64,000 nt of DNA from Bacillota bacterium (GTDB taxonomy: Bacteria; Macinerneyibacteriota; Macinerneyibacteria; Macinerneyibacteriales; DSCS01). The stretch spans positions 7,864-71,863 of the forward strand of contig DSCS01000064.1 in assembly GCA_011048995.1 (NCBI GenBank), read 5' to 3'. The position numbers and the translations under genes were made by a program. A model generated the notes under the pieces. The model made no database searches and was not told where the DNA came from. It saw only the letters and a program-made list of their open reading frames with translations. Below are positions 6,513-64,000 of the stretch, piece by piece (positions within the stretch are counted from its first letter, which is position 1; every line of letters starts with the position of its first letter).

Positions 6513-6513
6513 A

Positions 6514-8476: not shown

Positions 8477-8545
8477 ACACACCTCCGGTTTATTGGGCCT
8501 AATGAAATCATACCATCGAAATGGATGAATCACAAGGAAGGAGAA

Positions 8546-9020: not shown

Positions 9021-9034
9021 TCAACCGCCTTTAT

Positions 9035-9119
9035 GCCGAAGTGGCGGAATTGGTAGACGCGCTGGATTCAAAATCCAGTGGAGGTTAACTTCGTAAGGGT
9101 TCGAGTCCCTTCTTCGGCA
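9035..9119 (+). tRNA. tRNA-Leu, anticodon CAA (class II, long variable arm), no encoded CCA
   Basis: Acceptor GCCGAAG/CTTCGGC plus discriminator A. Anticodon stem CTGGA/TCCAG with loop TTCAAAA. 4-bp variable arm. T-arm AAGGG-TTCGAGT-CCCTT. Followed by TTTT. Confidence 0.95.
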
Positions 9120-9122
9120 TTT

Positions 9123-13194: not shown

Positions 13195-13223
13195 AATGAC
13201 TCCTCCCTTTCTAATGTGCCACC

Positions 13224-13251
13224 TTGACACTGTTTCGATTTTATTTATAAT
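13224..13251 (+). promoter_or_regulatory. Sigma70-type promoter for the TPR lipoprotein gene
   Basis: TTGACA (13224-13229), 16 nt spacer, TATAAT (13246-13251). The ATG at 13292 is preceded by GGAGG. Confidence 0.55.
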
Positions 13252-13266
13252 CAGAGGGACTGTCAA
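13238..13266 (-). promoter_or_regulatory. Sigma70-type promoter for the M42 x3 / bEBP operon, interleaved with the divergent promoter
   Basis: Minus strand: TTGACA (13266-13261), 17 nt spacer, TAAAAT (13243-13238). Confidence 0.45.
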
Positions 13267-13291
13267 GATATTAAGCAAAAGGAGGACGATT

Positions 13292-14242: not shown

Positions 14243-14277
14243 AAGAGGCTTGCGGGAAAATCTTCCGCAAGCCTCTT
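14243..14277. terminator. Bidirectional stem-loop terminator between convergent genes
   Basis: 13-bp perfect stem AAGAGGCTTGCGG / CCGCAAGCCTCTT with a 9-nt loop. T-rich on the plus side. It overlaps the stop codon of the minus-strand gene. Confidence 0.6.
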
Positions 14278-14969
14278 TATTCCAAGGCGTCCCGCTCAAG
14301 ATTCCACTGAACCCATGGGTCTTTTTTATCTTCTTCTGCATCAAAGGGAGCGGGCTCTGTCGGGGACCCCTGAGATGAGATCGCAATCACGTTCAATTTT
14401 TCGACTATTTTGACCCACTCTTCCATGCTGACCTCACGGGGGCCTTCGATCTCAACCGGGCCATTGATTTCCTGAGGCTCCAAAAGAGAAGGATCTTTTT
14501 CGAAGACAGGCCTTTCCCCCTTGACTTCAACGCGGCCGTCGTAGACAAAAAGCCGGGCAGAATTATCTTCAAACTGATCGAGACGATACACTGTTCCCCG
14601 AACCCCGGCTGTTCCTGTTCTGAATGTCACATTATATTCATCCCGGGCCACCAGTTTTTTGACTTTCGTCCAAAAACGCCCTAATGTGACTTTTATAGAG
14701 ACTTTTTTCTTTCCTTTTTCTTCTGTAAGAGATTCAAAATAGACTTTGGAATCAGGCCCGATACGCACCAAAGTCCCGTCGTTAAGGGCGATTTCAATTT
14801 TGCCCCTGTGCGTCTGAATATAATCGCCCTGCTGAACAATCTGCCGCAATTCCGCAGGAGCATAGTTCACCTGGGCATACCCTTCAATATAAGTGACTTT
14901 CCCTTTCATAGCCATGAGAGACACAGAAAAAGCAAAAACTGACAACAAAAAAATCAATAACCGTTTCAT
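14277..14969 (-). CDS. Secreted FecR-domain protein (paralog of 7736..8476)
   Basis: Signal peptide MKRLLIFLLSVFAFSVSLMA. GTAGVRGTVYRL, FVYDGRVEVKG, GPREVSMEEW and W.QWNLERD motifs. ATGA overlap with the upstream membrane protein gene. Confidence 0.7.
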   Translation of the reverse strand: MKRLLIFLLSVFAFSVSLMAMKGKVTYIEGYAQVNYAPAELRQIVQQGDYIQTHRGKIEIALNDGTLVRIGPDSKVYFESLTEEKGKKKVSIKVTLGRFWTKVKKLVARDEYNVTFRTGTAGVRGTVYRLDQFEDNSARLFVYDGRVEVKGERPVFEKDPSLLEPQEINGPVEIEGPREVSMEEWVKIVEKLNVIAISSQGSPTEPAPFDAEEDKKDPWVQWNLERDALE

Positions 14970-15406
14970 ACCGATTCCTCTCTTTTTTCTTTCCACATAA
15001 ACTCAATATTCCTCGCAAGCTCCTCATACCGCTCCAAAGCTGAGGGAATAAGCATCTCTGTCTTATGCCCTTGCAGGAAAAGTCCGTTTTTATACCGGGT
15101 GACAGACGTTATCTCCGTAAAACGGATGATCTCTTTGGGGCGGCCCGGAGCTGATTTCTGTATTCCCCTGTCATCTAGAATATAACGCGTTGTCGATATT
15201 TTTAAAAAGAGCCGGCTGTATTTCAATACCGGGAAGAAAATAATAAAAGCCCCGACAAGAAAATAGTCTGCAGAACTTTCGGCTTTCCCCGGGCTCCTGA
15301 AATAAAAATAAGCGCCAACAGCCAAGGCCATGGCAAAGAGCAGAGCCCGGGATAAATAGGCCATCTTGCGGACAGCCGACTTTTTGTAGGCATATTTTTC
15401 AAACAT
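14966..15406 (-). CDS. Two-TM membrane protein with a C-terminal bacterial PH-like (YdbS/bPH_2-like) domain; candidate anti-sigma component
   Basis: 146 aa. Two hydrophobic helices (aa ~18-38 and 50-68) followed by YILDDRGIQK....IRFTEITSV...NGLFL......MLIP. It sits between the ECF sigma gene and the FecR-domain gene. Confidence 0.55.
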   Translation of the reverse strand: MFEKYAYKKSAVRKMAYLSRALLFAMALAVGAYFYFRSPGKAESSADYFLVGAFIIFFPVLKYSRLFLKISTTRYILDDRGIQKSAPGRPKEIIRFTEITSVTRYKNGLFLQGHKTEMLIPSALERYEELARNIEFMWKEKREESV

Positions 15407-15417
15407 CTTTTCTCCCG

Positions 15418-16023
15418 TTACTCATCGAAATAATCCTTCAGCATCTCTTCTAACAGCTTCCGGGCTCGGAACAAACGGCTTTTGACCTGTCCGCTCGTAA
15501 GGTCCAGTTCTTCCCCGATCGTTTCATAACTTTTCCCTTCAAGAGCCGCCTTGACGATCACTTTACGATAATGCGCGGGAAGATCGTCAATGGCCTCCTC
15601 CACCGCCCGGGAGATCTCCCTGTACTCCATAGCCTCCTCCAGAGAATGCCGCTTTCCGTGCTCCATACGGTCCAGCGCCTCTTCAGAGTTCGGGACAAAG
15701 TGCCGTTTGACCAGATTCCGCAAATACATCTTCCACTCATTAGAGACAACGGTTGAAAGCCATGCGGAAAAAGATCCGTCCCCCTTATAGGTATTTATCT
15801 TATAGTATATCGTAATAAAGACGTTTTGAAAAAGCTCTTCTGCAATTTCTTCATCCCGCGCCAATTTCCGCACATGTTTCATCACAAATAATGTGTACCG
15901 GCACACTAATTCATCAAAGCTTTTCACATCTCCCTTTTGCACTTGCTGAATCAGTTTTTTTTCTTCCAGATCCTGCAGATCACGGCTTGTATTAATATTT
16001 TTCCAGAATTTCATAAACATCAC
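15418..16023 (-). CDS. ECF-type sigma-70 family RNA polymerase sigma factor
   Basis: Region 2 (FDELV.RY...V........D.E.AEEL.Q..F, SAWL) and region 4 HTH (LP..YR.V......EG.SYE.IGEELD...G.VKSRL.RAR..L). The start is ambiguous (GTG 16023, ATG 16020 or ATG 16014). It overlaps the folC 3' end. Confidence 0.88.
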   Translation of the reverse strand: MMFMKFWKNINTSRDLQDLEEKKLIQQVQKGDVKSFDELVCRYTLFVMKHVRKLARDEEIAEELFQNVFITIYYKINTYKGDGSFSAWLSTVVSNEWKMYLRNLVKRHFVPNSEEALDRMEHGKRHSLEEAMEYREISRAVEEAIDDLPAHYRKVIVKAALEGKSYETIGEELDLTSGQVKSRLFRARKLLEEMLKDYFDE

Positions 16024-32947: not shown

Positions 32948-33609
32948 CTTTTCTCCTTTTTATAGATCTCATTGGTAATGACCAAACCCTCCGAAGATTT
33001 CTCCACACGAAGGGGAGTGCCGGAAACTCCCCGCCCTCCCGATTCCTGAAAAAGACGAATGATCTTTTCCACATAATTGATCGTCTCCGGATAGGGAGGG
33101 ATTCCTCCATAGGTCTCAACAGCCGACGGGCCGGCATTATAAGCTGCCAAAGCAAGGCGCAGATTCCCGTTAAAACGATGATACATCAGTTTGAAATACC
33201 GCACTCCTCCGAAAATATTCTCTTCAATGTCAAAAGGATTGGAAACCCCCAGCATCCTCGCCGTATCCGGCATCAATTGCATGAGGCCCATGGCGCCGAC
33301 ACGCGACACCGCAAAGGGATGAAAGCGAGATTCGACCTGAACAATCGCCTCAACAAGCCGACGGTCCACATCATATTGCTGCGAAGCTTTACGTATCACT
33401 TCCGAAATCACATCACTTTGACCCCCGGTCTCATAATAACGGCTATACTGATACCCGGTGGCGGATATTTTTCCCCTCGGCAATGTTTCCTCTTCAGTTT
33501 CTTTTTTGATAATAGACAATTCCTGTTTCTCCCCCCGATGGATGACGATTTCTCCGTGAAGAGGCAAGACGCTGAGGCAGAAAAGCAAAACAGAAAAAAT
33601 AAATCTCAT
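32944..33609 (-). CDS. Soluble lytic transglycosylase (SLT domain) protein
   Basis: Signal peptide, VESRF.P.AVS..GAMGLMQLMP.TA and AYNAGP motifs. Confidence 0.88.
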   Translation of the reverse strand: MRFIFSVLLFCLSVLPLHGEIVIHRGEKQELSIIKKETEEETLPRGKISATGYQYSRYYETGGQSDVISEVIRKASQQYDVDRRLVEAIVQVESRFHPFAVSRVGAMGLMQLMPDTARMLGVSNPFDIEENIFGGVRYFKLMYHRFNGNLRLALAAYNAGPSAVETYGGIPPYPETINYVEKIIRLFQESGGRGVSGTPLRVEKSSEGLVITNEIYKKEKR

Positions 33610-35408
33610 TCTTCTCCTAATGCTGTGGGTTTTAACTGTCGTGTATCGGTCACAAATGCCCTGACCATCCCTTTTTGATCACCGGCAATAACCGTCCCCT
33701 CCCAAAGGCAGGGCTTCCCCTGGATAGGGCCACTCAGAGAGCCCTTCCAGACCAAGTCCCCTTTTTCTGCTGTCAGGGCATAAAGATTCCCGTCATAGCT
33801 TCCGATGTAGAGAATGCCGTCATGGACAACAGCACCGGAGCGGACAACTCCGTTCGTAGCTTTATTCCATAACACAGCCCCCGTTTTGATATCCAGGACA
33901 TATATATTCATATCCTCAGAACCAAAATAGACCGCATGATTGTCTGCGTAGATCTGTCCGGCGATTTCTTTTCCGGCGGTAAAACTCCAAAGGACCTCTC
34001 CTGTCATCCGGTTCAGGGCATATAGTTTATAATCATCACACCCGACGTAAACAGCCTCCTCCGTAACAAAAAGAGTGGAATAGATCTTGTCTCCCAAAGT
34101 CCTGGACCAAATCCGCTTTCCTGTTTTTTTGTCCAAAGCGTAAACAGTATGATCCAATGACCCGGCATAAAGCATCTCTCCCTTGATAAAGGGAGCTGTC
34201 CATACAGGGTTTTTTGTAGGATGCCGCCACACTTCCCCTCCGTCTTTCTTGCGAACAGCATAAATATAGCCATCTTCAGAACCAAAATAAATGAGCTCCT
34301 CGTCTCCGACAGCCTCAGACACGATACGTCCGCCCGTTTTGAAACGCCACTCTATCGAACCGTCTTCTTTTTTCAGCCGGTACATCAGATTTTTAAACGT
34401 TCCGATATAAAGCGCATCACTGTCAACAAGGGGAGCAGCTGCCATGCTGTAGGCCATTCTCGCTCTCCATGCAAGTTCACTCCCTTGAGCTTTATACGCG
34501 TATAAGTATTTATCTTTGGAAGCGATAAAGAGCATTTCGTCTGTTCCTACGGGAGATGCGTCAACACTTTTTCCGAATGTCTTCTCCCAGGCGATCTTAG
34601 ATTCCAACGGGAGATTCTTTTGCAAATATGTGACGGAAACGGCAGAATCTCCTTTATTCGGAGACACAGGGAGATCACGAACCGGCAAGGCAGACCCCGG
34701 AGCCCGTTGACTTTTGACAGCTCGAAAAATAAAGAGTCCCAAGAGAGCCAGAGCCGCCACTGTTCCTATGACTTTCCAGGGGATGATGATCTGCGGCGCC
34801 GAAAAATCCAATGTCAATGTCAGCACCTCGGACTGTCCCAACTGGTCTTTTTCGTGGGCCCGTTCCGCCAACTCTTTAGCCGCAACCTGAATCGTATATT
34901 CGTTTAGAATATCGGAAAAAGCTTTTTCGGTTACCGCCTCAGAAATATTTTCCGAAACCACAGCGATCTTGTCGCCGGGAGACAGGATGTACTCCCCGAA
35001 TTGCACTGTATTTTCCCAATGACACCGATCATTGCTTTCCCCATTGACATGCCATAACTCATCTTTTCGGGATAAAAAGGCTTTATATCTGTCCGAACAG
35101 GCAAAGTAGAGCCGTTTATGTGAGATGACACCGATAAAAAAATCACCTTCAGGGCTCAACTCTCTTAAGGTCAATTTGAGGGCCATGAGAATGGCCCCTT
35201 TCTCTGCCTTTTCAATATAACGGTCGATGACAGAGACAACCCATTCCTCCTGAATAAGAGGATTAGCAATGACCGAAAAGAGATATCCGAACCGGGACAT
35301 GTCTTTACGGGTATAGACATTATGATAGTGAAAATGCTTTTTTCCGAGGGTTTCTTGCTTTAACGGAGTGGACTCCCCAACGATTACCGGATATTTTGCC
35401 ATAGACAC
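33606..35408 (-). CDS. Bitopic protein: degenerate PP2C-like cytoplasmic domain - TM - periplasmic PQQ-like (BamB-type) beta-propeller
   Basis: aa ~1-195 follow PP2C block order but lack the metal-binding Asp residues. The TM helix is IGTVAALALLGLFIF. The C-terminal ~330 aa contain at least 7 repeats of the type LYA....G...W (PQQ_2-like). Confidence 0.7.
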   Translation of the reverse strand: MSMAKYPVIVGESTPLKQETLGKKHFHYHNVYTRKDMSRFGYLFSVIANPLIQEEWVVSVIDRYIEKAEKGAILMALKLTLRELSPEGDFFIGVISHKRLYFACSDRYKAFLSRKDELWHVNGESNDRCHWENTVQFGEYILSPGDKIAVVSENISEAVTEKAFSDILNEYTIQVAAKELAERAHEKDQLGQSEVLTLTLDFSAPQIIIPWKVIGTVAALALLGLFIFRAVKSQRAPGSALPVRDLPVSPNKGDSAVSVTYLQKNLPLESKIAWEKTFGKSVDASPVGTDEMLFIASKDKYLYAYKAQGSELAWRARMAYSMAAAPLVDSDALYIGTFKNLMYRLKKEDGSIEWRFKTGGRIVSEAVGDEELIYFGSEDGYIYAVRKKDGGEVWRHPTKNPVWTAPFIKGEMLYAGSLDHTVYALDKKTGKRIWSRTLGDKIYSTLFVTEEAVYVGCDDYKLYALNRMTGEVLWSFTAGKEIAGQIYADNHAVYFGSEDMNIYVLDIKTGAVLWNKATNGVVRSGAVVHDGILYIGSYDGNLYALTAEKGDLVWKGSLSGPIQGKPCLWEGTVIAGDQKGMVRAFVTDTRQLKPTALGEE

Positions 35409-35480: not shown

Positions 35481-37022
35481 ATGATATCCTTTTCTGTTGC
35501 AAAACAACACATTTTTGGTATAATCCTTTTTATGATTTCTTTTCAGTGGATATTGATTCTTCTTCAAGCTGAAGGCCTGCATGCTTCAGCTACGGGAGGG
35601 ACGGATCTTTTACGCCGTGTCCCTGATTTCTTTTCTTCGGTCCAATACTCTTTGGAAAGCCGTTTTTTGGCCCTTACCAACACGATATGGATCTCCCTTT
35701 TTATCTTTACCCTGACATTGGTCGCTCTTCTCATCCTGATCAGTTGCCGCTATCTTGATACGGTGAAATTCCGGACTCTCAGAAGTTTTTATATGGATTC
35801 CCCCTCACCTCTTATCGTTTTATTGGTCAATATTCTTGCCAGTCTTGCTTTTTTCCTGGGAGGATGGATTTTTGTTTTTTTTCTCAATATTCATAATTTA
35901 TCCAAAAAAGAACTCTATACCCTCTTGGTCTGGGCTCTTCTTATTTTTTTGCCTTTTGGCATCATCCTTTCCTCGCCGGGCTGGTTCGACGGATTGATCG
36001 CACAGACTCCGTCAGCTTTGCTAAGGGCTTATGACCGGTCGGATCTCTCGCATGTCCGCTTATACAGAGATGATCCCTTTATCCGTGAGAATCCCCTGTA
36101 TCTTTGCCTTTTGGCTCAACACAATCAATCTTCAGGAACGGCCTCCGGAAACAAACAAAATGCAGCCCTTCTTCAAAGAGCTTTATCCGGAGGATATACA
36201 TCGACAGCTGTCTATAATAATCTGGGGAACGCCATGCTGATGCTGAATTCATCTGATGCCGCTCTTTCCCATTATGACAGAGCCCTCTCGCGCGCTCCCG
36301 AAGACCCGATCGTCCTCTATAATATCTCGCAATACTATTTGTTTCGGAATGATTATGATACAGCTAAAGTCTTCTATGACAAGGCCTTCACCCTGAAAGG
36401 GCAGCTGGAACTCCCTGTCCTGGACTGGGAAAACATCATCCTGTTAGAAAAGACACTTGACCCCGATTTTGTCTGGCGTTTCTTTTTGGGCGAGACAGCT
36501 CGCCGGGAATTTCCGCAGAAAGCCTTTTCTCAGCCCCAGCTTTTCCTCTTTCCGGGAATTTCCGTTTTTCTTATTCTCCTTATTATTTTCCTCTTCCCGC
36601 TGACATCTAATTGGGCTTCATTTGTAACTTGTGAATCCTGCGGCATACCGATTATCCCCGGGTCTGCGACGTCATCCCATCAAGGCCGGATCTTTTGTTC
36701 CCGCTGCCATCTTATGCTCCCGGTTTACCTCAATCAAAAGCTGGGAAAAGATTCCATGGCGACAAAGATCGATACTTTGAAACATATACTCTTCAACCTG
36801 ATTATTCCCGGGGGCGGTTATATCTTAAAAGGACACACCCTTAAAGGCCTTTTTTGGCTTCTTCTCACAACAACGGTTCTGACTTTCAGTTTTTTTAATA
36901 AATATTTTCTCATTACTGATTATTCGCTTCTGTCTGCTTTTAACAGGACCCTGGATCTTTACCCCGCTGTCTCTTTTGTATCCACGGTGTTACTTCTCTT
37001 TTGTAAAGGACGGAAATCATGA
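35481..37022 (+). CDS. Polytopic membrane protein with central TPR repeats and a CxxC...CxxC zinc-ribbon
   Basis: 513 aa. At least 5 hydrophobic helices. TPR-like YNNLGNAMLMLNSSDAALSHYDRALSRAP / YNISQYYLFRNDYDTAKVFYDKA. CESCG-x18-CSRCH at aa 384-409. The start is uncertain (ATG 35481 or 35532). Confidence 0.6.
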   Translation: MISFSVAKQHIFGIILFMISFQWILILLQAEGLHASATGGTDLLRRVPDFFSSVQYSLESRFLALTNTIWISLFIFTLTLVALLILISCRYLDTVKFRTLRSFYMDSPSPLIVLLVNILASLAFFLGGWIFVFFLNIHNLSKKELYTLLVWALLIFLPFGIILSSPGWFDGLIAQTPSALLRAYDRSDLSHVRLYRDDPFIRENPLYLCLLAQHNQSSGTASGNKQNAALLQRALSGGYTSTAVYNNLGNAMLMLNSSDAALSHYDRALSRAPEDPIVLYNISQYYLFRNDYDTAKVFYDKAFTLKGQLELPVLDWENIILLEKTLDPDFVWRFFLGETARREFPQKAFSQPQLFLFPGISVFLILLIIFLFPLTSNWASFVTCESCGIPIIPGSATSSHQGRIFCSRCHLMLPVYLNQKLGKDSMATKIDTLKHILFNLIIPGGGYILKGHTLKGLFWLLLTTTVLTFSFFNKYFLITDYSLLSAFNRTLDLYPAVSFVSTVLLLFCKGRKS

Positions 37023-38350
37023 GCCCGCAAAGCATTCCTTTACAGTATGATACCTTTAAGAAAACAGTGGAAAATATCACCCTTCTGGAGAAGACCGGAA
37101 CCCTTGAAGTCGTCAACCGGGCCAATAGCCGCTCCTACTTTTTTTACATAAAAAAAGGAGAGATCATCTACATTGAGGAGCATCCTGTCCGTCTGGAAAA
37201 CAGGATCGGTGATTACCTCCTCAAACAGGGACTTATCAATGAGGAGCAACTCCGCCAGGCATTGGGAAAACAAAAAACGAATAAATATGAATTTTTGGGA
37301 GATCTGCTCCTGAAAGAAGGCTTTATTTCTCCCACGGAACTTCTGCAAAGCCTTACCCATCAAATTGAAAACGTTCTTTTTCTTATTTCACTTATCACCG
37401 ACGGCTTTTTTACTTTTGCTGAAGGCGATACCCCTGAAAGAATGCCTCAAATCCCTTATACGATTACTCTGAGCAATCTTCTTATGATTTTCCTCAACTC
37501 TTCTGAGATCATTGTCAAGATGCCTTTTCTGAAAGAGACCTTGAACCTGGGCTTTCAGGTGGACAAAGTCGCTGTCAACATCAACAAACTCAATCCCATG
37601 GAACAGTGGATCGTCGATGCCCTGCGCAGAGGCGCTACGGTGTTCGCTATTCTCGACCAGGCGAAAAATACCAACTACATCACCCTGATGTCTGTTATCT
37701 ACAGCCTCTATGACCGGAATATTATCAGAAACCCGGAACCCCAAGATTCTCCGGGGAAACAACCCCCTCCCCCCGGGCCTCTTCGACCGGGAAGAGAGTC
37801 TTCTTTTCCCAAGACATTCCCCGCTGACACTCCACCACCCCCAAAACTCCCGAAAGAAGAAAAAAAACGTCTTCCCTCCGAGCCCATCGAATTTGTCTAC
37901 AGGTCCGAACCGGAACCCTACCCGTCTAAACCCAAACAACAGCCCCAGCCCTCTTCTCAAAAAAATCCTGCAGAAAAGAGCCCTGCCCGGCCGGCCGCAC
38001 GACAGCCACTCCGCCAGACAAAAAAGAAAAAAACATACCGGCCCATGTCTTATGCTTTAGCGGACATTTTATCTTTTCTTGCGGTTCTTGTTTTATTGAT
38101 TCTCTATCTGGGAATGCTTCGCCCTCTGTTTAAAACTCCGGTGACGGAACACTTCCATCTCATGACACCGGAAACACTGGAAGAGGTCAAAATACAGCGC
38201 ACATTGAACATGGGAAAGACACTGACATCAGAAGAACTTCTGGAACGAAAAGACTTTTGGCAAAACTCTTTTTACTCAAAAAAAGGAGAAACCTTTTCCA
38301 GCGGTCCGGACGGAATACCCGATACCCCCGACGATTTTCGGGTCATGTAG
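37019..38350 (+). CDS. DUF4388-type protein with tandem MshEN-like c-di-GMP-binding motifs, Pro-rich linker, TM helix and C-terminal GspG-like pseudopilin module
   Basis: ATGA-coupled to the upstream gene. TGTLEV...FFYIKKGEIIY (DUF4388-like). RIGDYLLKQGLINEEQLRQALGKQ and FLGDLLLKEGFISPTELLQSLTHQ. aa 239-335 are P/K/Q-rich. TM YALADILSFLAVLVLLILYLG. C-terminal DFWQNSFYSKKGETFSSGPDGIPDTPDDF. Confidence 0.7.
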   Translation: MSPQSIPLQYDTFKKTVENITLLEKTGTLEVVNRANSRSYFFYIKKGEIIYIEEHPVRLENRIGDYLLKQGLINEEQLRQALGKQKTNKYEFLGDLLLKEGFISPTELLQSLTHQIENVLFLISLITDGFFTFAEGDTPERMPQIPYTITLSNLLMIFLNSSEIIVKMPFLKETLNLGFQVDKVAVNINKLNPMEQWIVDALRRGATVFAILDQAKNTNYITLMSVIYSLYDRNIIRNPEPQDSPGKQPPPPGPLRPGRESSFPKTFPADTPPPPKLPKEEKKRLPSEPIEFVYRSEPEPYPSKPKQQPQPSSQKNPAEKSPARPAARQPLRQTKKKKTYRPMSYALADILSFLAVLVLLILYLGMLRPLFKTPVTEHFHLMTPETLEEVKIQRTLNMGKTLTSEELLERKDFWQNSFYSKKGETFSSGPDGIPDTPDDFRVM

Positions 38351-39683
38351 GCGGCTTCTTTTCCCGATCATCTTCAATAGGGTTCATATGTCCGGCCATT
38401 TGAACGATTTCCCGTGAAAGTTTTCTTAAGCGTTCCTTCAAAATGACAGGGCAATCATAGATGCTCACGTCTTTTCCGATAATAATATCCTCTGCCAAAT
38501 CATAACAAGTGGGACATCCGCACATCCCGCAATTCAGCTGGGGGAGAAGGCGGTTGACTTCTTCGATCTTCTTCATCTTTTTCAATGCCTCCTTGATATC
38601 ACTATCCAGGGGGCTGATCGGGCGAGGCTTGAGGGGCATCCCGATCGAGCAGATTTCATCCCTGTCAAAGGGAAGGGGGATCTCGGGATTATCGGGTAGT
38701 TCTTCGGCAATCTTCTTGATCCTGTACTCTGCAATAAAAGCATCCTCTTTCGTAAAAACACCCCCGACGCAAGCATTATCACATGAATACATATCCACAA
38801 AATCAATATCCTTGACTTCTCCGTTTTCCAAACGCTCCAAAAACCTGATGGCATTCTGAATCCCATCAATGCGGAGATTGACCGATTCGTTAAACTTATT
38901 CTCCACATCGCCTAAAGCACTCCATCTGAGAGCAAATTTGGACGAAAGAATCGTTTCTTCCAATTCAAAATGCGCAAAATCTTGTTTTTCCATAATACGC
39001 CGGATCTCATTATACATGTCCCCCAGACTGAACACTCCGTTAAAGATCCGCTTCTCTTCCGCTTCAGGCTGATAGATAGCTACAACTTTGGCGGGACAGG
39101 GAGAGAGATAAAAAAGGCCTATCTCATCATCCAAAACCCCTGTTTGCTCTTTATAATTGTGTTTGATGTATTCTCCGGCGACATCCATCAAATTCCTTAA
39201 GGGAAGCAAATGATTGATCAGCGAGGGAAACTTCACCTGGATCAGCCGGACAACAGCCGGGCAATTGGTGGAGATATAGGGGCGGTATATATTTTTTCTG
39301 TCCTTAAGAAAGCTTTTTATAATATCCGAAATAATCACGCCGCCGGTGTCTACTCCTATAATATCGTCAAATCCCAATAATTTAAAAATACCCAGAATCT
39401 TTTTGACATTGTCGAATTTTCGGAATTGACCGAAAAAGACAGGAGAGTAGACTAAAAGTTTGTGTTTATATCCTGAAATCATCTCAAGGGCATCCACTTT
39501 GGCTGAAATGGCCTTCTGTGGACAGACACGCATGCATTCACCGCAATCAATGCATTTGTTTTCCAGGATAACAGCCTTCCCGTGGCGTATGCGCATGGCC
39601 TGTGTAGGGCAGACCCGGAGACAGCGTGTACACCCGTTACAACGGTTCTGATCCACATAAACAGCATGAAAATAATCGGACAT
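38343..39683 (-). CDS. [FeFe]-hydrogenase-like Fe-S protein: 2x[4Fe-4S] ferredoxin + H-cluster-type domain with altered motifs + C-terminal 'putative Fe-S cluster' domain
   Basis: CNGCTRCLRVCP and CIDCGECMRVCP. STNCPAV (vs TSCCP), SPCPAK (vs MPCxxK), MYSCDNACVGG (vs MxCxxGCxxGG). C-terminal CGMCGCPTC...DCP. Confidence 0.75.
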   Translation of the reverse strand: MSDYFHAVYVDQNRCNGCTRCLRVCPTQAMRIRHGKAVILENKCIDCGECMRVCPQKAISAKVDALEMISGYKHKLLVYSPVFFGQFRKFDNVKKILGIFKLLGFDDIIGVDTGGVIISDIIKSFLKDRKNIYRPYISTNCPAVVRLIQVKFPSLINHLLPLRNLMDVAGEYIKHNYKEQTGVLDDEIGLFYLSPCPAKVVAIYQPEAEEKRIFNGVFSLGDMYNEIRRIMEKQDFAHFELEETILSSKFALRWSALGDVENKFNESVNLRIDGIQNAIRFLERLENGEVKDIDFVDMYSCDNACVGGVFTKEDAFIAEYRIKKIAEELPDNPEIPLPFDRDEICSIGMPLKPRPISPLDSDIKEALKKMKKIEEVNRLLPQLNCGMCGCPTCYDLAEDIIIGKDVSIYDCPVILKERLRKLSREIVQMAGHMNPIEDDREKKPPT

Positions 39684-39692
39684 AATAGCTTT

Positions 39693-40136
39693 TTATCCTT
39701 TCTCAATATAAAAGGTCATCGTGACTTCCGTCCCGTTATCGATTTCACTGGCGATCTCCATCTCATCACTGTTGCGTTTCATATTCGGCAGTCCCATACC
39801 TGCTCCAAAGCCCATTTCACGCACTTCAGGACTGGCTGTCGAATACCCCTCTTCCATGGCCTTATCGATATCAGGGATTCCGGGGCCGCGATCTGTTACT
39901 ACGACTTTGACCTTAGACTCATCCATATAAAAAGCGATGGTACCACTGTAGGCATGAGCCACCACATTCAATTCTCCTTCATAGGCCGCCACAAGAACAC
40001 GGCGGATAAAGGTAGGCGGAAGCCCTAATTTTTTCAAATATTCTTTGATCATACCGGAAGATTCTCCTGCATTGAGGAAATCTCCTCCTTTGATTTTAAA
40101 GTCCATCAGCAATTCCATATCTTCGCCCCTAATCAT
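39693..40136 (-). CDS. GHKL-type ATPase, anti-sigma-factor/RsbW-like serine kinase fold
   Basis: 147 aa. N-box-like AAYEGELNVVAHA, G1 TDRGPGIPD, G2 GFGAGMGLPN. The start overlaps the upstream stop by 8 nt. Confidence 0.75.
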   Translation of the reverse strand: MIRGEDMELLMDFKIKGGDFLNAGESSGMIKEYLKKLGLPPTFIRRVLVAAYEGELNVVAHAYSGTIAFYMDESKVKVVVTDRGPGIPDIDKAMEEGYSTASPEVREMGFGAGMGLPNMKRNSDEMEIASEIDNGTEVTMTFYIEKG

Positions 40137-40680
40137 TCAATTGCAGTTCAGCCAATCCGCTTTCGATATCTTCTTCCAGAGCCCCGAGAACCTGAGGAGT
40201 ACTGAGGTCAATATCTCCCATGATTTCCCGGACGATCCGGGTATCAAACTCATATTTGTCTTTCCCTTTTTTCACCATGACATAAAGATCGATTTCGGGA
40301 TGTCCCACAATCAGCGAAATAATCGTGTCTGTCATATTCCCTAAAGGCGGACGGTCAATATGGGAAAGCTTCATGGTCACAGTGACCCGGGTATATGATC
40401 CCTTTTCTGACATAATGGAAAAACCGCCGTCACAAGCCTCTGCGGTCTGAATGAAAAGAGGAATTCCCAGCCCCCACCCTTTGCCTTTTTTTGTGGAAAA
40501 CAACGGGTCCATGGCTTTTCCAATCATCTCTGTATCCATTCCTTTCCCGTTATCCACAACAGTGATCGTAATGGTATCGTTTTGTGTATCAATATCGATA
40601 AATAAATCCAAATGCCAGGCTCCTGCGGCAATGCCGTTTTCCATGATATCCATAATATGCATAGAAAGTTCAGGCATCAT
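40129..40680 (-). CDS. GHKL-type ATPase domain protein with a ~90-aa C-terminal extension
   Basis: MDIMENGIAAGA (N-box), VVDNGKGM (G1), GWGLGIPL (G2). The ATG at 40680/40677 overlaps the PHP gene stop. The track ORF start at 40794 lies inside the PHP gene. Confidence 0.7.
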   Translation of the reverse strand: MMPELSMHIMDIMENGIAAGAWHLDLFIDIDTQNDTITITVVDNGKGMDTEMIGKAMDPLFSTKKGKGWGLGIPLFIQTAEACDGGFSIMSEKGSYTRVTVTMKLSHIDRPPLGNMTDTIISLIVGHPEIDLYVMVKKGKDKYEFDTRIVREIMGDIDLSTPQVLGALEEDIESGLAELQLND

Positions 40681-41407
40681 AGCAGACTCCCCGGCCTTCT
40701 CTGCCTTGTAATGCCATGCGAAACTCTTCAAAGGAAGGTGTTTGCATCTTATATGTTGTAAAAGCGCATCCGACATCTTCCAAAAGATGGGCATCCGAAT
40801 TGGTCACAAAGGGCCAGTGCCCGTATCGGGCATATTTTTTTCTGGCCTGCTCCAGAGACAGATGCCGGGAGATCTCGATCCCGTCGATCTTCGAATCCGA
40901 AGGGATAAATCCCAATTGGGAGATCACACTGTAGGAATCCCTGTCAATGTGTGAAAAAAGCACAACGCCGCCCCGGCCATGCACCTCTTCAATGATTTCT
41001 TCCATTTCCATTTCAACCGATTGCAAAAGTAATTTATCCTCCATTTTGATAATCCGGTCTTCGGCATCTACAACGACCTGATCTCCAAAATATTCCGGAT
41101 TATTTGGAATATCAGGCAGATAGCTGTAAAGAAAATCCCCCATGGCTTCGGCCTTTTCTCGGTTTCCGAAAAGCGTCAGCAAATGAGTTTCCGAAGCGCT
41201 CTGTATTTCCAACCCGAAAAAAAGGGCGATTTTTTCCAGGGCCGCATCCTCCAAAGCCTTCAAATTCCCCGCGCTGTTATGGTCTGCAAGAGCAATAATA
41301 TCCATTTTCTTTTCAAGGGCCTTTTTCACAATCGCCGCGGGGGACATATCCAGCCCCCCGCAAGGCGATAAAACAGAATGAATATGAAGGTCGGCCTTCA
41401 GGTACAT
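40670..41407 (-). CDS. PHP-domain metal-dependent phosphoesterase
   Basis: ADLHIHSVLSPCG, LADHNS, FSHIDR and NSDAH: the four His/Asp-rich PHP motifs. Confidence 0.85.
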   Translation of the reverse strand: MYLKADLHIHSVLSPCGGLDMSPAAIVKKALEKKMDIIALADHNSAGNLKALEDAALEKIALFFGLEIQSASETHLLTLFGNREKAEAMGDFLYSYLPDIPNNPEYFGDQVVVDAEDRIIKMEDKLLLQSVEMEMEEIIEEVHGRGGVVLFSHIDRDSYSVISQLGFIPSDSKIDGIEISRHLSLEQARKKYARYGHWPFVTNSDAHLLEDVGCAFTTYKMQTPSFEEFRMALQGREGRGVCYDA

Positions 41408-41740
41408 CTACTTCACAGAAGGGTAAAGCAAGCCGGCGCAGGTGAAGGCGTCCTTTTCCGTGGCAAAAAGAGGAACGCCGACTTTTTCGGCCGCTTCCAC
41501 AAGCCCGGCCTCCGGCTCCACGCCGTTCACCACTACGATCCCCGCGATATCTTTAGCTGTCGCGACTGCAATCACATTTTTATGACGTTGAATGGTAAAC
41601 CAAAGGCATCCGCTGCAGGCATGGGCCAGGACATCACTCAACAGATCCCCGGCGTAGCCTCCCTGAATCTCTGTTTTTTCCCATTCACACTGTGTCAGGG
41701 GTTTCAACCCCAGTTTATCAGCAGCCTCTTTTAAAGTCAT
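41408..41740 (-). CDS. DRTGG-domain protein
   Basis: 110 aa. GDLLSDVLA, then a nucleotide-binding-like fold I.AV.TAKDIAGIVVVNG and GVPLFAT. It abuts the PHP gene with no intergenic nucleotides. Confidence 0.75.
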   Translation of the reverse strand: MTLKEAADKLGLKPLTQCEWEKTEIQGGYAGDLLSDVLAHACSGCLWFTIQRHKNVIAVATAKDIAGIVVVNGVEPEAGLVEAAEKVGVPLFATEKDAFTCAGLLYPSVK

Positions 41741-41743
41741 CCT

Positions 41744-42112
41744 CTACACCTCACTTGCAGGGCGGTTCTTACACGGGCGTATGCCGTTTTTGTAAAGAAT
41801 GCCGCTTGTTTCAAACATGGTCTTTTTCGTTACGATCATCGGGATATTGAGCCTTTTACGCGCGACTTCCATAACATCATCCGAAGGCTGTTTCCCCCGG
41901 ATGAAGATAATGGCTGTAATCCCTAAAATTTCCGCTACGCGAATGACCTGCAGGGTCACCGTGCCGGTAATCAGTAAAGTATCGCCCTCTGTCAACGCCA
42001 GGACATCGCTCAACAGATCCGCACTGTACGCAGATGAGATCTCAATCTCCAGGTCATGTTCTCCGGCGATCACTTCCCCATCCAGCAAGTCAATTATTTC
42101 CTTGATCTTCAT
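41744..42112 (-). CDS. DRTGG-domain protein
   Basis: 122 aa. ADLLSDVLA, LLITG, ITAIIFIRG, NIPMIVT. Confidence 0.78.
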   Translation of the reverse strand: MKIKEIIDLLDGEVIAGEHDLEIEISSAYSADLLSDVLALTEGDTLLITGTVTLQVIRVAEILGITAIIFIRGKQPSDDVMEVARKRLNIPMIVTKKTMFETSGILYKNGIRPCKNRPASEV

Positions 42113-42127
42113 GGCCGCTCCTTCAGT

Positions 42128-44191
42128 TTATCGTGACAGCATAATAACATCAACGCGTCTGTTATTCGCCCTTCCTTTAGCCGTTTTATTTGTGTCCACA
42201 GGCATATCGGGACCGTAGGCAACAGAGACAATACGGGCAGAGTCGATTCCGCCTGCAACGAGATATTTCTTTACCATCTCAGCACGGTCGCGGGAAAGCT
42301 TCTCATTCACACTCCGGGCCCCTACATTATCAGTATGCCCCTCTACCCGGACAGTAGACTGAGGATAGGAGACCAATGTCGAGATGATTTTATCCAACTC
42401 TTCTTTTTGAGCTGCCGTCAATGTATACGCATTCTCTTCAAAACGAAGGCGCGCCATAAGAAGCATGGCCGGAATCGGAGGCATCTCCTGTGATATGGGC
42501 GGTTCCACCAACTGAGTCGCCTCTACCGGTACCGTTACAATCAAGCTCTCACCCGTATTCCCTGCTCTGTCTGTCAGCCTGGCAAAGATATTAAGGGAAT
42601 CTCCCTTTTCCGGATATGTTCCGTCAGCTAAAATCCCGCTCCATTCAAAACGGTCCTTATGCCCTTCATAAATGATCTCATGAATTGTTTCTGTTCCCTT
42701 GGTGACAACGATTTGAGTCTTTGCGACATCCACGTTTTCATGGGGAGTCACAGTAAAGGTCAATCCCTCCCCGGGTATCAGTTTATCGGGCATCACGTTG
42801 AGTGTGACTTCCAGAGTCTTGGAACGCACGGCGACGAAAGCTTTATTGCTGCTTCCTTTATTTCCGTAACGGTCCTTCACCGTCATCACCGCTGCATATG
42901 TGCCGTCAGGTACCACGGCGCCTTTATTGTCTTTTCCGTCCCAGGTCATAAAGGGCGGAAGGCTCTTTTTGCCTTTGAAACGGCGAACCTCTTTCCCTCC
43001 CTCATCGGTAAGAGACAAGGTCCAGCTCCTGATGATCTCATTGTCTTTGCTTTCTGCCAGGATACGCACCTGGTCTTTGATACCATCTCCGTTGGGAGAA
43101 AGCCATTCGCTTTCCGCCATGATCCGGACAACCGGAGGAATCTTATACGCTGATGCCATGGTCTTCTCTCCTGTATAGGCCAAAGAAAAGGCCATGGATG
43201 AGCCGGTATACTCACCTGCAAGGGCATACCCGGCATTGACTTCGAAACCGCTGAAACGAAACCCCAGTCCGGCTGTGATCTGTCCCTCTCCGTCGTAGAG
43301 AGGATCAGTCAGCGCTCCTTCATAGAGTGCCGCCCCGTCTTTATAAAAAGTGTTCTGCAGATAACCGGCACGAAGGGCTATCTTCTTGTTCAGAAACCAC
43401 TCTTCCGCCCCCACATGCAGGGCCGTGGAATTAGCATGATTCATCAAATAATCAGCTCCCAGAGAAAAGCTGGCGAGGCCCATCAGCTGATGTTCCATCT
43501 TCAAGCCCAAGCCGGCATTGATTCCCATTGTGACATCCATGGGAGCAATAACATCGGTGAGAGTCAACCCCATGTTAAAAGAAGATCCTGACTCATTCAC
43601 CGGAACGACAGCTAACAGGGAAACATCCCCCCCCATCGCTGAATCCACATAAGTATCCGGAGCGGATGAACTCTGATACTCCTCTTCAAGAGAAGGCATG
43701 ATATATTTGCCTGTAAAGGCAAACGCCAAATCAAAACCGCCCATATTGACTTTTCGTGTCAGGGAAAGGGCCGCCATATCAATAATGCAATCGTCGGGAT
43801 CACTTTCATCGATAGCGTTCGTGGCTACATAAGGAAGAAGAAGAGACGTACGGCTTACGGTCACATTGGCTGTAAACCAATCCATCAGCGGAAAGGTCAC
43901 GCCGAAATACATGTTTTTATAAAGGTCAAGATCCGTATTCAATTCTTTCATAAACAGCCCCATGCCGCCGAAGGCATCCACCCCGTAAGAAAAAGCATAT
44001 CCGGCCGGGTTTTGCAGATTTCCGGAGCTCCGGCTCAGCCCGATTCCGGCACCGCCCATCCCTAAAGATGTCGCATCTGTCAGGCCGATACGGCTGTTTT
44101 CATAAAACGCAGAAGCCGGGTTCTCTCCATCAAGCGCCCAGGCAGAAACCCCCAAGGCCAGCATCAAAACGAACATTATGAATCTCTTCAT
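42128..44191 (-). CDS. Outer-membrane protein: N-terminal beta-barrel + two FlgD-Ig-like domains + C-terminal OmpA peptidoglycan-binding domain
   Basis: Signal peptide. Alternating beta-strand pattern to aa ~340. SPNGDGIKD and DGTY motifs (FlgD_ig-like) twice. C-terminus VEGHTDNVG....N..LS..RA..V..YL...G......V.YG...P.......GRA.NRRV. Confidence 0.8.
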   Translation of the reverse strand: MKRFIMFVLMLALGVSAWALDGENPASAFYENSRIGLTDATSLGMGGAGIGLSRSSGNLQNPAGYAFSYGVDAFGGMGLFMKELNTDLDLYKNMYFGVTFPLMDWFTANVTVSRTSLLLPYVATNAIDESDPDDCIIDMAALSLTRKVNMGGFDLAFAFTGKYIMPSLEEEYQSSSAPDTYVDSAMGGDVSLLAVVPVNESGSSFNMGLTLTDVIAPMDVTMGINAGLGLKMEHQLMGLASFSLGADYLMNHANSTALHVGAEEWFLNKKIALRAGYLQNTFYKDGAALYEGALTDPLYDGEGQITAGLGFRFSGFEVNAGYALAGEYTGSSMAFSLAYTGEKTMASAYKIPPVVRIMAESEWLSPNGDGIKDQVRILAESKDNEIIRSWTLSLTDEGGKEVRRFKGKKSLPPFMTWDGKDNKGAVVPDGTYAAVMTVKDRYGNKGSSNKAFVAVRSKTLEVTLNVMPDKLIPGEGLTFTVTPHENVDVAKTQIVVTKGTETIHEIIYEGHKDRFEWSGILADGTYPEKGDSLNIFARLTDRAGNTGESLIVTVPVEATQLVEPPISQEMPPIPAMLLMARLRFEENAYTLTAAQKEELDKIISTLVSYPQSTVRVEGHTDNVGARSVNEKLSRDRAEMVKKYLVAGGIDSARIVSVAYGPDMPVDTNKTAKGRANNRRVDVIMLSR

Positions 44192-54676: not shown

Positions 54677-54744
54677 GGCTGAATAATAACAGGGCGAAAA
54701 AAAAAGACAAGTTTTCATTGACCCTTTTTATCAAAGGCTTATAC

Positions 54745-54895
54745 TTTCATCGTTCAGAAGGGAAACGGGTGAGAATCCCGTGCTGCCCCGCAACTGTAAA
54801 CGGAACGAAAACCCGGACGAAGCCACTGTGTGTGATACACGGGAAGGCGGGCAAGTAGGCAGCCGTAAGCCAGGACACCCAATGAACAGAGGCTA
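54745..54895 (+). promoter_or_regulatory. Cobalamin (B12) riboswitch
   Basis: AAGGGAAACGGGTGAGAATCCCGTGCTGCCCCGCAACTGTAA core, GCCACTG....GGGAAGGC element, and B12-box AGCCAGGACACC. It sits directly upstream of a TonB-dependent receptor. The boundaries are approximate. Confidence 0.9.
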
Positions 54896-54925
54896 TCACA
54901 TTGAACCAACTCGAGGGGGTTGACT

Positions 54926-56866
54926 ATGCGTATGTTTTTTTGTGTTATTGTGTTGTTTCTTTTTGTCTCCCGCACACCGGCTGAAGAATACCTGATCACT
55001 GCCAATCGGGTTCCCGAAGACCCGGCGAAATCAACTGCGGACATCACCATCCTGGACACAGAAGAGCTTGATGAAAAACAAAGTGAGGATTTGAATGCCC
55101 TTTTGACCGCCCTTCCACCTTTTTTGGTGGCGGAATACGGGTCATGGGCCGGATCCTCCATCCGTCTGGGAGGCAGCTCGTCAAAAAACCTTTTAATCCT
55201 TCTTGACGGTATTCCCCTGATCAATCCCACGGGCATCGACCGGGGTTTCAGTTTGCCGAATTTTTCCATGAGCGGCATCCGGCGCGTTGAAGTCGTTCGA
55301 GGAGCCAACAGTGCACTGTACGGCTCCAATGCCGTGACGGGAGTCATTAATCTTATGACTTCCACGGAACGCGACAGATCCGGGCTTTCACTGGGATTCA
55401 AAGGAGGGAGCCACGGTTATTACATGGCCGATGCTGAATGGATGAAATCCTACGACAGAGGCTCTTATATCTTGAGTGGAGAATATATGCAGGTGGAAGG
55501 ATACAATATCTCTCCTGCCGGAGATGAAAAAGACGGGGCCCGGAGCCATACTTTATCGGCCTCTGTCAATCATGCCTTGTCAGACAACTTTTCAATGACA
55601 GGCCGCTGCCATTTAGCCTTCTCCTCTTCCGATTATGATGCATGGACCCATCAGGCTGCCGATGCCCCGCTGACTGATGAAAACATCAATTTTTTAGCCG
55701 CTCTGAAAGGAGAGGGAGAATTATTTTCCCGACATCGCAGCTCATTTTCTCTCAGCTTTAACCGGGCCCGTCGCCTTTACGAAGACAACAAAACTGAGAC
55801 GGACCGCTATGAAGGAAATACCTTGAGGCTTTCTTTTCAAGATGATTATGCCGTCACCTCCTCAGTCACCATCACTGCAGGGAGTGACCTTTCCTGGGAA
55901 AGTGCCCGGCAAATCACATCTTATGATTACAATATGGAACGCAGGAGACTTTTCATCCCGGAAGTCTTCACAGGGATCTCTGTTCACATTTCCGAATCTC
56001 TTTCTCTCAACGGAGCTCTTCGATACCTTCACTCTGATACAGGAGACAAAAAAGATACCTTTGTCTACAAGGGAGGCCTGCATTGGGATCTTCCTTTGTC
56101 GCTATGGGACTCCTCGCTGGCGCTCAATTACGGGACTTCTTTTAACCTGCCCACGCTTTTTCAGCTCTACGGGAAAGCCCTGGACTGGATGACATCTTCT
56201 CCCATCACAGTAGGAAATCCCGATCTGAAGCCTGAGAAAGGACAAAACTTGAATATTTTGTGGAAAAACGCTCTCATTGATGATCACGTCTTTTGTGACC
56301 TATTTTGGAGCCGTGAAATATTTGAGGATTATATCGCCATGGACTATTCGGCTAATACCTATGTCAATCATCAAAGCGCCGAGATTGAAAATTTCGAGAT
56401 CCGCCCCACCCTCGTCATTCGCCCGGGGAAATGGGAGCTTTCTCTTTTCAGCCATCTTATCTTCACTCAGGCCACAGACACCACAGACGGATCAAAAAAA
56501 GACTTGCCCATGGTTCCGGAACAAACCTCTCAAATTGGAATCCGCGCCGCGCATAAACCCGTCTCCGTCTCTCTTTACTGGAATAGGACAGGGCAGCGCT
56601 TAGCCGGATATCCTGTCCTGGAGATGCCGGCCTACTCCCTCCTAAACGCGGCAATGACATGGAACGTCTCCTCACAGGTCTCTTTGCAGCTCAAAGGGGA
56701 TAACCTGGCCGATGAAAAATATCGTCAAACCGTTGAACTTGTAGACTCCGGCTACGGACCTGTTCCGACGATTACTGAAGTCAGCGGCTATGTTCATTAC
56801 CCCGGCTATCAGACACCCGGACGATCCTTCCAGGCAGGGATCACATATTTTCTTCCCGTCCGATAA
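54926..56866 (+). CDS. btuB: TonB-dependent outer-membrane receptor, BtuB-like (cobalamin/corrinoid uptake inferred from the riboswitch)
   Basis: Signal peptide, TonB-box-like YLITANRVPE, plug motifs (RVEVVRGANSALYGSNAVTGVINL), and a C-terminal beta-barrel ending in an aromatic residue context. The ATG at 54926 lies 6 nt after GAGGGGG. Confidence 0.88.
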   Translation: MRMFFCVIVLFLFVSRTPAEEYLITANRVPEDPAKSTADITILDTEELDEKQSEDLNALLTALPPFLVAEYGSWAGSSIRLGGSSSKNLLILLDGIPLINPTGIDRGFSLPNFSMSGIRRVEVVRGANSALYGSNAVTGVINLMTSTERDRSGLSLGFKGGSHGYYMADAEWMKSYDRGSYILSGEYMQVEGYNISPAGDEKDGARSHTLSASVNHALSDNFSMTGRCHLAFSSSDYDAWTHQAADAPLTDENINFLAALKGEGELFSRHRSSFSLSFNRARRLYEDNKTETDRYEGNTLRLSFQDDYAVTSSVTITAGSDLSWESARQITSYDYNMERRRLFIPEVFTGISVHISESLSLNGALRYLHSDTGDKKDTFVYKGGLHWDLPLSLWDSSLALNYGTSFNLPTLFQLYGKALDWMTSSPITVGNPDLKPEKGQNLNILWKNALIDDHVFCDLFWSREIFEDYIAMDYSANTYVNHQSAEIENFEIRPTLVIRPGKWELSLFSHLIFTQATDTTDGSKKDLPMVPEQTSQIGIRAAHKPVSVSLYWNRTGQRLAGYPVLEMPAYSLLNAAMTWNVSSQVSLQLKGDNLADEKYRQTVELVDSGYGPVPTITEVSGYVHYPGYQTPGRSFQAGITYFLPVR

Positions 56867-63949: not shown

Positions 63950-64000
63950 GAGTTCTTTTCCGCCTTTTTTCCGACATTATATCCTTATTTGGCCAAAGGT

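Follow-up and report, generated by a model that had tools for sequence, protein, structure and literature searches.

A GspG-like domain tethered to a predicted c-di-GMP receptor and paired with a TPR/zinc-ribbon membrane protein in Candidatus Mcinerneyibacteriota

Pilin and pseudopilin domains are usually regarded solely as cleaved, polymerising subunits. GspG, PulG, OutG and EpsG of type II secretion systems (T2SS; Pfam PF08334 and PF07963) carry a leader of 6-10 amino acids (aa) ahead of one N-proximal hydrophobic helix, lie N-in/C-out in the membrane, and contain a beta-hairpin and Ca2+-binding loop with the hallmark D-x-W-x-N...S-x-G-P-D-G-x-x-x-T-x-D-D. On the cytoplasmic side, MshEN is the N-domain of type IV pilus (T4P) and T2SS ATPases (PMC5013675), and the described MshEN receptors of cyclic di-GMP (c-di-GMP) include V. 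cholerae MshE, the PilB/PilF ATPases and the glycosyltransferase NfrB; their consensus consists of two tandem 24-residue motifs, RLGxx(L/V/I)(L/V/I)xxG(L/V/I)(L/V/I)xxxxLxxxLxxQ, with a 5-aa spacer (Wang et al. 2016, PMC5013675). PilB1, the motor of the T4P, is bound by PATAN response regulators, and the PATAN family is functionally linked to the type IV pilus machinery (bioRxiv 10.1101/2021.06.11.447907). Here, we report that one gene in the stretch of DNA analysed (64 kb in all, hereafter the window) joins a PATAN/MshEN region to a single predicted transmembrane (TM) helix and a GspG-like C-terminal domain, and that it is strictly paired with an upstream gene for a membrane protein with a TPR region and a zinc ribbon. 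The explanation towards which we lean, with some reserve, is an uncleaved bitopic c-di-GMP receptor that forms a lineage-specific inner-membrane complex with this partner and is descended from a pseudopilin fusion. The features of the protein are as follows (window positions):

37019-38350 (+): the whole open reading frame (ORF), 443 aa, with PATAN/MshEN, helical domain, linker, TM helix and GspG-like domain
37019-37438 (+): aa 1-140, PATAN (DUF4388/PatA_N) domain holding the MshEN insertion (Pfam PF14332, E 4.3e-17; AlphaFold2 (AF2) model with a predicted local distance difference test score (pLDDT) of ~80-89)
37202-37363 (+): aa 62-115, MshE-type motif pair, predicted to bind c-di-GMP (NCBIfam NF053729; PDB 5htl)
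37439-37726 (+): aa 141-236, conserved all-helical cytoplasmic domain, common to the distant homologues P0015 and P0027, with no family assignment
37727-38041 (+): aa 237-341, disordered Pro/Lys/Gln-rich linker (AF2, composition and alignment)
38045-38131 (+): aa 343-371, single TM helix with the basic cytoplasmic flank KKKK..R
38132-38245 (+): Pro-rich break (aa 372-383), then helices (aa 384-408) at the position of GspG alpha-1C (AF2 models and global hhalign)
38246-38347 (+): aa 410-443, GspG-type (T2SSG-like) beta-hairpin and putative Ca2+-binding loop

The motif at the C-terminus is homologous to that of GspG. Aligned by hhalign with E. coli K-12 GspG, the family profile reached a probability of 92.4% (E 5e-7) over aa 410-441, against 0.1-0.5% for GspH, GspI and GspJ. 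When all PDB sequences were searched with a profile of the C-terminal 108 aa, four of the five matches were GspG chains (3g20, 29jd, 5wda and 1t92), and the match to 3g20 (E 0.023) falls on the segment S-x-G-P-D-G-x-P-x-T-x-D-D-I. In an exhaustive hidden Markov model (HMM) search with the C-terminal profile against 1.84 billion representative proteins, 37 matches were obtained; of the 28 non-family matches scanned, 16 exceed the Pfam T2SSG gathering score, 2 are slightly under it and 1 is a genuine N_methyl prepilin, the only other recurring family among the 28 being Big_5, in three. The hallmark pattern D-x-W-x-N...S-x-GPDG-x3-T-x-DD occurs once in the six-frame translation of the window, and D412, W414, S427, G429, D431, T436, D438 and D439 remain unchanged even in homologues with as little as 20% identity. 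Because of this invariance, and because the profile retrieves T2SSG proteins from outside the family, the pattern is judged to be no chance match. The Ca2+ ligands of PulG/OutG are D117, S/T122, D124 and D125 (PMC13081927). When PulG residues 109-126 are aligned, these correspond to D431, T436, D438 and D439, all four of which are invariant in the family, i.e., the ligand loop is complete at the sequence level, and we infer that the C-terminal domain would bind Ca2+.

The first-pass annotation of the window had taken the last ~100 aa for a complete minimal pseudopilin. Its recognition of a GspG-type motif holds, with the Ca2+-ligand positions conserved; the word complete is an overstatement, as significant similarity covers only the last ~32 aa. 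The structure prediction that it had proposed gave a divided answer. When the C-terminus was modelled with AF2 (pLDDT 82 overall and 89-93 in the globular part, from a shallow 8-sequence alignment), GspG 3g20 and PulG 5o2y made up the three best Foldseek matches in the PDB, the next match having a ~7-fold worse E-value; the matches are weak, however (E 0.26-0.9, template-modelling scores 0.25-0.33), and the helix is broken at aa 372-383. The full-length AF2 model gave nothing with Foldseek against the PDB (best E 0.88), a multi-domain model with a disordered linker being unsuitable for this comparison. The HMM search that had likewise been suggested turned out negative: Pfam T2SSG (PF08334) matched no family member at E<=10, nor did it with the C-terminal 101-108 aa alone, and N_methyl (PF07963) and the TIGR02532/NCBIfam pilin models had no match at E<=10 in 7-8 family members. 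Formal membership of the T2SSG or pilin families was rejected on these Pfam and NCBIfam scans. There are also differences in geometry: the alpha-beta loop has ~45 residues in GspG and ~10 in the protein reported here, and the beta1-beta2 turn is 6 residues shorter.

The helix ahead of this domain resembles that of a prepilin in its placement and departs from it in its cleavage signal. The only strongly hydrophobic segment is aa 346-364; since KKKK..R precedes it, an N-in/C-out orientation is expected, like that of a prepilin, in line with the outward-facing C-terminus proposed at first, and the tail beyond the TM helix, 72 aa long, would be periplasmic. In global mode, hhalign laid the whole module collinear with preGspG, S|YALAD against G|FTLLE, pairing Y345 with F+1, D349 with E+5 and the invariant P369 with P22, and bringing the helices after the break to the position of alpha-1C; the portion aligned to GspG alpha-1N carries no significant score alone. 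The peptide strings KKKKTYRPMS-YALADILSFLAVLVLLILYLG and DFWQNSFYSKKGETFSSGPDGIPDTPDDF are both present in the ORF. Of the acidic fifth position that had been pointed out, D349 itself stands, and the +5 residue is D/E in 7 sequences, but it is Arg in P0008 and Lys in P0009. Residue -1 is Ser, as had been read; it is T or K in the other Mcinerneyibacteriota homologues, N in P0027 and G in P0015, and 342 residues precede the helix instead of a leader of 6-10. The predicted alpha-1 helix is interrupted by the Pro-rich, low-confidence stretch of aa 372-383. The protein is without a class III signal, i.e., it is not a formal pseudopilin, and we read its C-terminus as a GspG-type domain, divergent and minimal, that follows an uncleaved TM helix, and not as a complete pseudopilin, because Gly(-1) is absent, +5 varies, alpha-1 is broken, and both the alpha-beta loop and the turn are shortened.

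One could still suppose that a protease, prepilin peptidase-like or other, cuts near S344/Y345, so that a soluble cytoplasmic c-di-GMP sensor is separated from a free pseudopilin of ~100 aa, which we regard as very improbable. P0015 with its Gly at -1 and Glu at +5 (FG|NVLAE) and the close homologues with Gly at -2 (PG-TYALVE) would suit such processing; the lack of conservation of Gly(-1) (S in the window, T/K, N in P0027), the failure of every member to match N_methyl or TIGR pilin models, and the lack of a peptidase gene nearby speak against it. Cleavage by prepilin peptidase was rejected because Gly(-1) is not conserved. To our knowledge, there is no precedent for a folded leader of 340 aa among class III signals.

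The TM helix is better conserved than what surrounds it. Y345, S352, F353, V356, L360, L362, Y363, L367 and P369 are invariant in the Mcinerneyibacteriota family, and mean pairwise identity within the family is 57% in the TM helix, 34% in the adjoining periplasmic helix region and 20% in the linker. That the helix exceeds the periplasmic helix region in this way suggests specific intramembrane contacts.

The matches of the C-terminal profile bear on the origin of the domain as well. They are mostly proteins with 2-8 tandem T2SSG units and without N_methyl (the metagenomic proteins P0012, P0013, P0024, P0031, P0036 and P0038), and P0010 combines a DUF4190 TM region with three T2SSG units. Like the protein reported here, the tandem proteins use the unit D-x-W-G...S-x-G-P-D-G-x-x-x-T-x-D-D outside a prepilin context, and this non-pilin use of the T2SSG head as tandem repeats appears to be undescribed. 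It is conceivable, and on the whole unlikely, that the globular domain alone was shuffled, a Ca2+-binding hairpin/loop of ~35-60 aa serving as a mobile module in the periplasm or outside the cell, next to a TM helix that is a generic anchor of no pilin ancestry; the domain would then be a Ca2+-dependent binding or stability module, or a periplasmic Ca2+ sensor. The restriction of significant GspG similarity to aa 410-441 agrees with this, as does the score of the TM region against GspG, which is no better than against any hydrophobic helix. However, the global alignment is collinear with preGspG, with Y/F(+1), D/E(+5) and Pro coinciding, and N-in/C-out is exactly the prepilin topology, so that a fusion at the leader is the simplest path by which it could have evolved. 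Nor are the tandem-repeat proteins obvious donors: their 2-8 repeats are of full size and carry the full alpha-1C 'Y..G.YP' helix, which is absent in the present family, and they have no PATAN/MshEN and no conserved TPR partner. From these alignments the GspG-like module was probably derived from a pseudopilin.

The ORF itself is intact. The interval 38045-38347 given at first for the C-terminal module is exact, 38045 being the first base of codon M343 and 38345-38347 being M443, the last codon before the TAG stop. An AAGGA ribosome-binding site lies 7-11 nt 5' of the start at 37019, and a 4-bp overlap (ATGA) joins this ATG to the stop codon of the gene upstream (35481-37022). It had to be considered whether misassembly or a frameshift had joined a DUF4388 gene to a small pseudopilin gene, forming a chimera with its junction at the A-rich run 38020-38035, the poly-A-rich stretch aaaaaagaaaaaaaca lying directly 5' of the region that encodes the TM helix. 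We found 9 homologous protein clusters of 35-96% identity with the same length and architecture, and ~15 loci in independent NCBI, ENA and JGI assemblies (gathered by scanning JGI metagenomes and 185,579 species genomes and by exact-protein look-ups) in which the N-terminal domain and the C-terminal module always form one uninterrupted frame. Because this continuous ORF recurs in independent assemblies whose linkers are of unrelated sequence and free of the homopolymer, and since the architecture is kept even in the distant P0015 and P0027, a chimera, which the first-pass annotation had itself named as the finding that would undo its reading, is excluded with near certainty. The gene product is real and conserved, in a rare candidate-phylum bacterium.

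Named records put the family in Candidatus Mcinerneyibacteriota. It comprises 5 representative clusters among the 1.84 billion proteins, at least 5 species among the 185,579 genomes (a lower bound, the genome scan having relied on N-terminal patterns) and six JGI metagenome loci. Outside this phylum, the exhaustive search of the 1.84 billion proteins gave the PATAN/TM/GspG-like architecture only in P0015 and P0027, which lie on one contig (L006) of an unclassified metagenome-assembled genome. The family is very rare and confined to a few uncultured lineages. The database search for the same fusion that had been proposed was thus productive, with nine clusters and ~15 loci, mainly in Mcinerneyibacteriota and with a conserved partner neighbour.

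The cytoplasmic part agrees with what was first read there, namely DUF4388 plus MshEN followed by a Pro/Lys/Gln-rich linker of ~100 aa. Pfam PF14332 (DUF4388) scores 62.7 bits (gathering cutoff 25), and a DUF4388 domain is precomputed for all the homologues. Within it, aa 62-115 score 51.5 bits with NF053729 (cutoff 38), and the best PDB match of this region is MshEN 5htl (E 2.6e-8). Motif I, RIGDYLLKQGLINEEQLRQALGKQ, fits the 24-residue consensus perfectly; motif II, FLGDLLLKEGFISPTELLQSLTHQ, deviates from it only by Phe at position 1, and the two motifs are 6 aa apart instead of 5. NF053729 was found in all four Mcinerneyibacteriota homologues scanned (40-54 bits against the cutoff of 38). 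In contrast to the known receptors, the motif pair sits as an insertion within a PATAN domain and does not stand ahead of an ATPase or glycosyltransferase, and the output would be a TM helix with a periplasmic pilin-type domain. The PATAN-REC regulators of Synechocystis share the N-terminal PATAN with an alpha-helical insertion (PF14332); unlike them, the present protein has no receiver domain, is predicted to be membrane-anchored with a periplasmic domain, and has no T4P genes nearby. AF2, run on a 10-sequence family alignment, placed aa 1-236 with confidence, left aa 242-341 disordered, made aa 343-371 a helix and, after the low-confidence break, gave a confident helix/beta-hairpin tail. Of the 108 residues counted for the linker (aa 237-344), 29 are Pro and 14 are Lys; its pLDDT is <50, and it is poorly conserved (the mean identity of 20% given above).

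GGDEF genes are present on the same contigs as family members (L020 and L006). That of the window's contig encodes a 311-aa GGDEF-domain protein (L020 1563-2498; same ~154-kb contig, ~8 kb past window position 64000), with four tandem small outer-membrane beta-barrel protein genes alongside it, just outside the window. The organism, with this gene on the same contig, has the capacity to synthesise c-di-GMP. It is a diderm, with a TonB-dependent receptor, ExbBD and OmpA encoded in the window.

The gene immediately upstream, which the first-pass annotation had missed, is an obligate partner:

35481-37022 (+): 513-aa polytopic membrane protein with a TPR region and a zinc ribbon (ORF, Pfam TPR matches and hydrophobic segments)

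In every locus the two genes are adjacent, either overlapping (translationally coupled) or with the PATAN/GspG-like gene just downstream. In a database-wide search, full-length relatives of the partner were found only in lineages with the family, the remaining matches being generic TPR. P0015 and P0027 are each directly downstream of their own partner copy, making two tandem pairs on L006, and the window's partner is homologous to both L006 partners (BLASTP 2e-34). The TPR region of the partner spans aa ~240-306, and a CxSC...CxxC pattern (C384, C387, C406 and C409) is invariant. Because four invariant cysteines suggest a zinc ribbon in the cytoplasm, the TPR domain would lie in the periplasm. 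The tandem arrangement of [TPR/zinc-ribbon protein + PATAN-TM-GspG-like protein] pairs occupies L006 8281-13973 and is seen in L007 and L012 too; on L006 one copy is without the MshEN insertion and the other degenerate, and the pairs are followed by a 1009-aa coiled-coil protein and, ~5 kb further, a REC-GAF-GGDEF cyclase.

Machinery for filament assembly is not found in the surroundings. Among ~60 annotated ORFs of the window, Pfam gave no T2SS/T4P ATPase, platform, secretin, prepilin peptidase or other ORF with a prepilin motif, in agreement with the first reading, and no such machinery is present within 10 kb past the right end of the window or near homologous loci; the protein is not encoded with gspC-O genes, as GspG is. 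This bears on a further interpretation, that of a pseudopilin locked in the membrane, which enters a T2SS or T4P machine encoded elsewhere and, because of its large cytoplasmic N-terminus, could not be extracted from the membrane; under the control of c-di-GMP, it would anchor, prime, stop or inhibit (pseudo)pilus assembly. Collinearity with full-length preGspG (aromatic +1, acidic +5 in 7 of the 9 sequences, Pro at the P22 equivalent), the high conservation of the TM helix and the provenance of all three modules from the T4P/T2SS world would fit such a role. The lack of type IV filament machinery, prepilin peptidase and pilin-like ORFs just described, Arg or Lys at +5 in two homologues, the interrupted alpha-1 and the missing alpha-beta loop, which contributes to subunit packing, do not, and the strictly conserved neighbour is a TPR membrane protein and no filament component. 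We consider this interpretation improbable. A variant, in which the non-cleavable protein inserts where type IV filaments are assembled, perhaps at a site of a new kind formed around the TPR/zinc-ribbon partner, and PATAN-MshEN makes initiation, anchoring or arrest c-di-GMP-dependent, is to be given slightly less credence still.

The uncleaved receptor in complex with its partner, which we favour, would work as follows. In its diderm Candidatus Mcinerneyibacteriota host, the protein would stay uncleaved and span the inner membrane once, running from a cytoplasmic N-terminus to a periplasmic C-terminus. The PATAN-MshEN module would bind c-di-GMP, the helical domain following it, and the flexible Pro/Lys-rich tether would join this cytoplasmic sensor to the conserved TM helix. 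The periplasmic mini-domain of ~60 aa, possibly Ca2+-stabilised, would descend from the globular domain of GspG, the major pseudopilin, most probably by way of an entire pseudopilin in which the sensor took the place of the cytoplasmic leader, and the protein would not be a filament subunit. We infer that the TM helix and the GspG-like head may dock it to the co-translated TPR/zinc-ribbon membrane protein, whose periplasmic TPR domain could bind the head. c-di-GMP occupancy may then regulate the two-protein complex or recruit cytoplasmic targets to it. Rigid transmembrane signalling is unlikely because the ~100-aa linker is predicted to be disordered and is much shorter in P0015 and P0027, and for that reason we prefer a tether-and-recruit mode, in which a membrane-fixed c-di-GMP receptor would capture or release cytoplasmic targets at the site of the complex.

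GspL and PilN/PilO connect cytoplasmic components with the periplasmic parts of an envelope machine. The present protein resembles them in having one TM helix between a cytoplasmic domain and a small periplasmic one, which is an analogy of function only: no sequence or fold relationship was detected, and its partner is a polytopic TPR/zinc-ribbon protein and not GspM, GspE or PilM.

Several observations weigh against the favoured explanation. The Phe for Arg at the start of motif II and the 6-aa spacer leave c-di-GMP binding in doubt, P0027 is without the MshEN insertion, and that of P0015 is below the NF053729 cutoff (33.6 bits against 38). The C-terminus goes unrecognised by the curated HMMs for pilins and T2SSG, and its structural similarity to GspG is weak and comes from the shallow 8-sequence alignment. 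The disordered linker argues against signalling across the membrane by conformational change. The topology of the partner is ambiguous by the positive-inside rule. Finally, the flanking genes differ between the two lineages.

In Mcinerneyibacteriota these flanks are conserved, with SecA, two M23 peptidases, SLT and a PQQ propeller on one side and Fe-S hydrogenase-like, HATPase_c, PHP and DRTGG genes on the other; they are absent from the L006 lineage, and for this reason no function was deduced from them. On the same ground, we rejected a connection in function with the divergent PQQ-propeller/SLT/M23/SecA cluster. In the window, the propeller gene (33606-35408, -) is divergent from the partner and encodes 600 aa with a cytoplasmic N-domain of ~200 aa, one TM helix and a PQQ/BamB-like beta-propeller; it adjoins the pair in Mcinerneyibacteriota and is absent in L006. 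On the other side, the cluster at 38343-44191 (-), convergent with the PATAN/GspG-like gene and conserved in all Mcinerneyibacteriota loci, encodes an [FeFe]-hydrogenase-like Fe-S protein, two HATPase_c proteins, a PHP phosphoesterase, two DRTGG proteins and an OmpA/CHU_C protein, and the 3' end of the hydrogenase-like gene overlaps that of the PATAN/GspG-like gene by 8 bp.

Elsewhere in the window, a cobalamin riboswitch at 54714-54898 (+; Rfam RF00174, 87 bits) lies directly 5' of a TonB-dependent receptor gene (54920-56866, +), an ordinary BtuB-type arrangement. Three tandem M42 glutamyl aminopeptidase paralogues (10122-13347, -) fit a lifestyle of amino-acid or peptide fermentation. A SpoIIE/PP2C phosphatase (572 aa) adjoins two tandem small cyclic-nucleotide (cNMP)-binding proteins on the same strand (4342-6978, -), and these genes may form a cyclic-nucleotide-linked partner-switching module. 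Two FecR-domain proteins, an extracytoplasmic function (ECF)-type sigma factor and a sigma-54 activator are encoded within 9 kb (7736-8533, 14277-14996, 15418-16023 and 9123-10091, all -), and a tRNA-Leu(CAA) is found at 9034-9120.

PATAN, MshEN and T2SSG are each known; what is new is the domain architecture and the two-gene module. The combination of the three is not among the MshEN partner domains that Wang et al. 2016 (PMC5013675) give in their main text, and our full-text searches on DUF4388/MshEN, on PATAN and type IV pili, and on T2SSG/PF08334 brought up nothing similar. The practical weight of the finding is limited, as the homology signal is confined to a short motif and the lineages are few and uncultured. 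A GspG-type domain with conserved Ca2+-ligand positions, tethered permanently to a predicted c-di-GMP receptor and paired with a dedicated membrane partner, is nevertheless, on the favoured explanation, a pilin-derived domain in a non-filament context that would surprise specialists. Should the module still interact with a filament machine, control would be exerted at a point not known before, that of the pilin, with pilus or endopilus assembly governed via the pilin subunit and not via the ATPase. According to the explanation we favour, a pseudopilin head would have been re-used in these bacteria as the periplasmic module of a signalling or scaffolding protein, giving MshEN/PATAN receptors a new output architecture.

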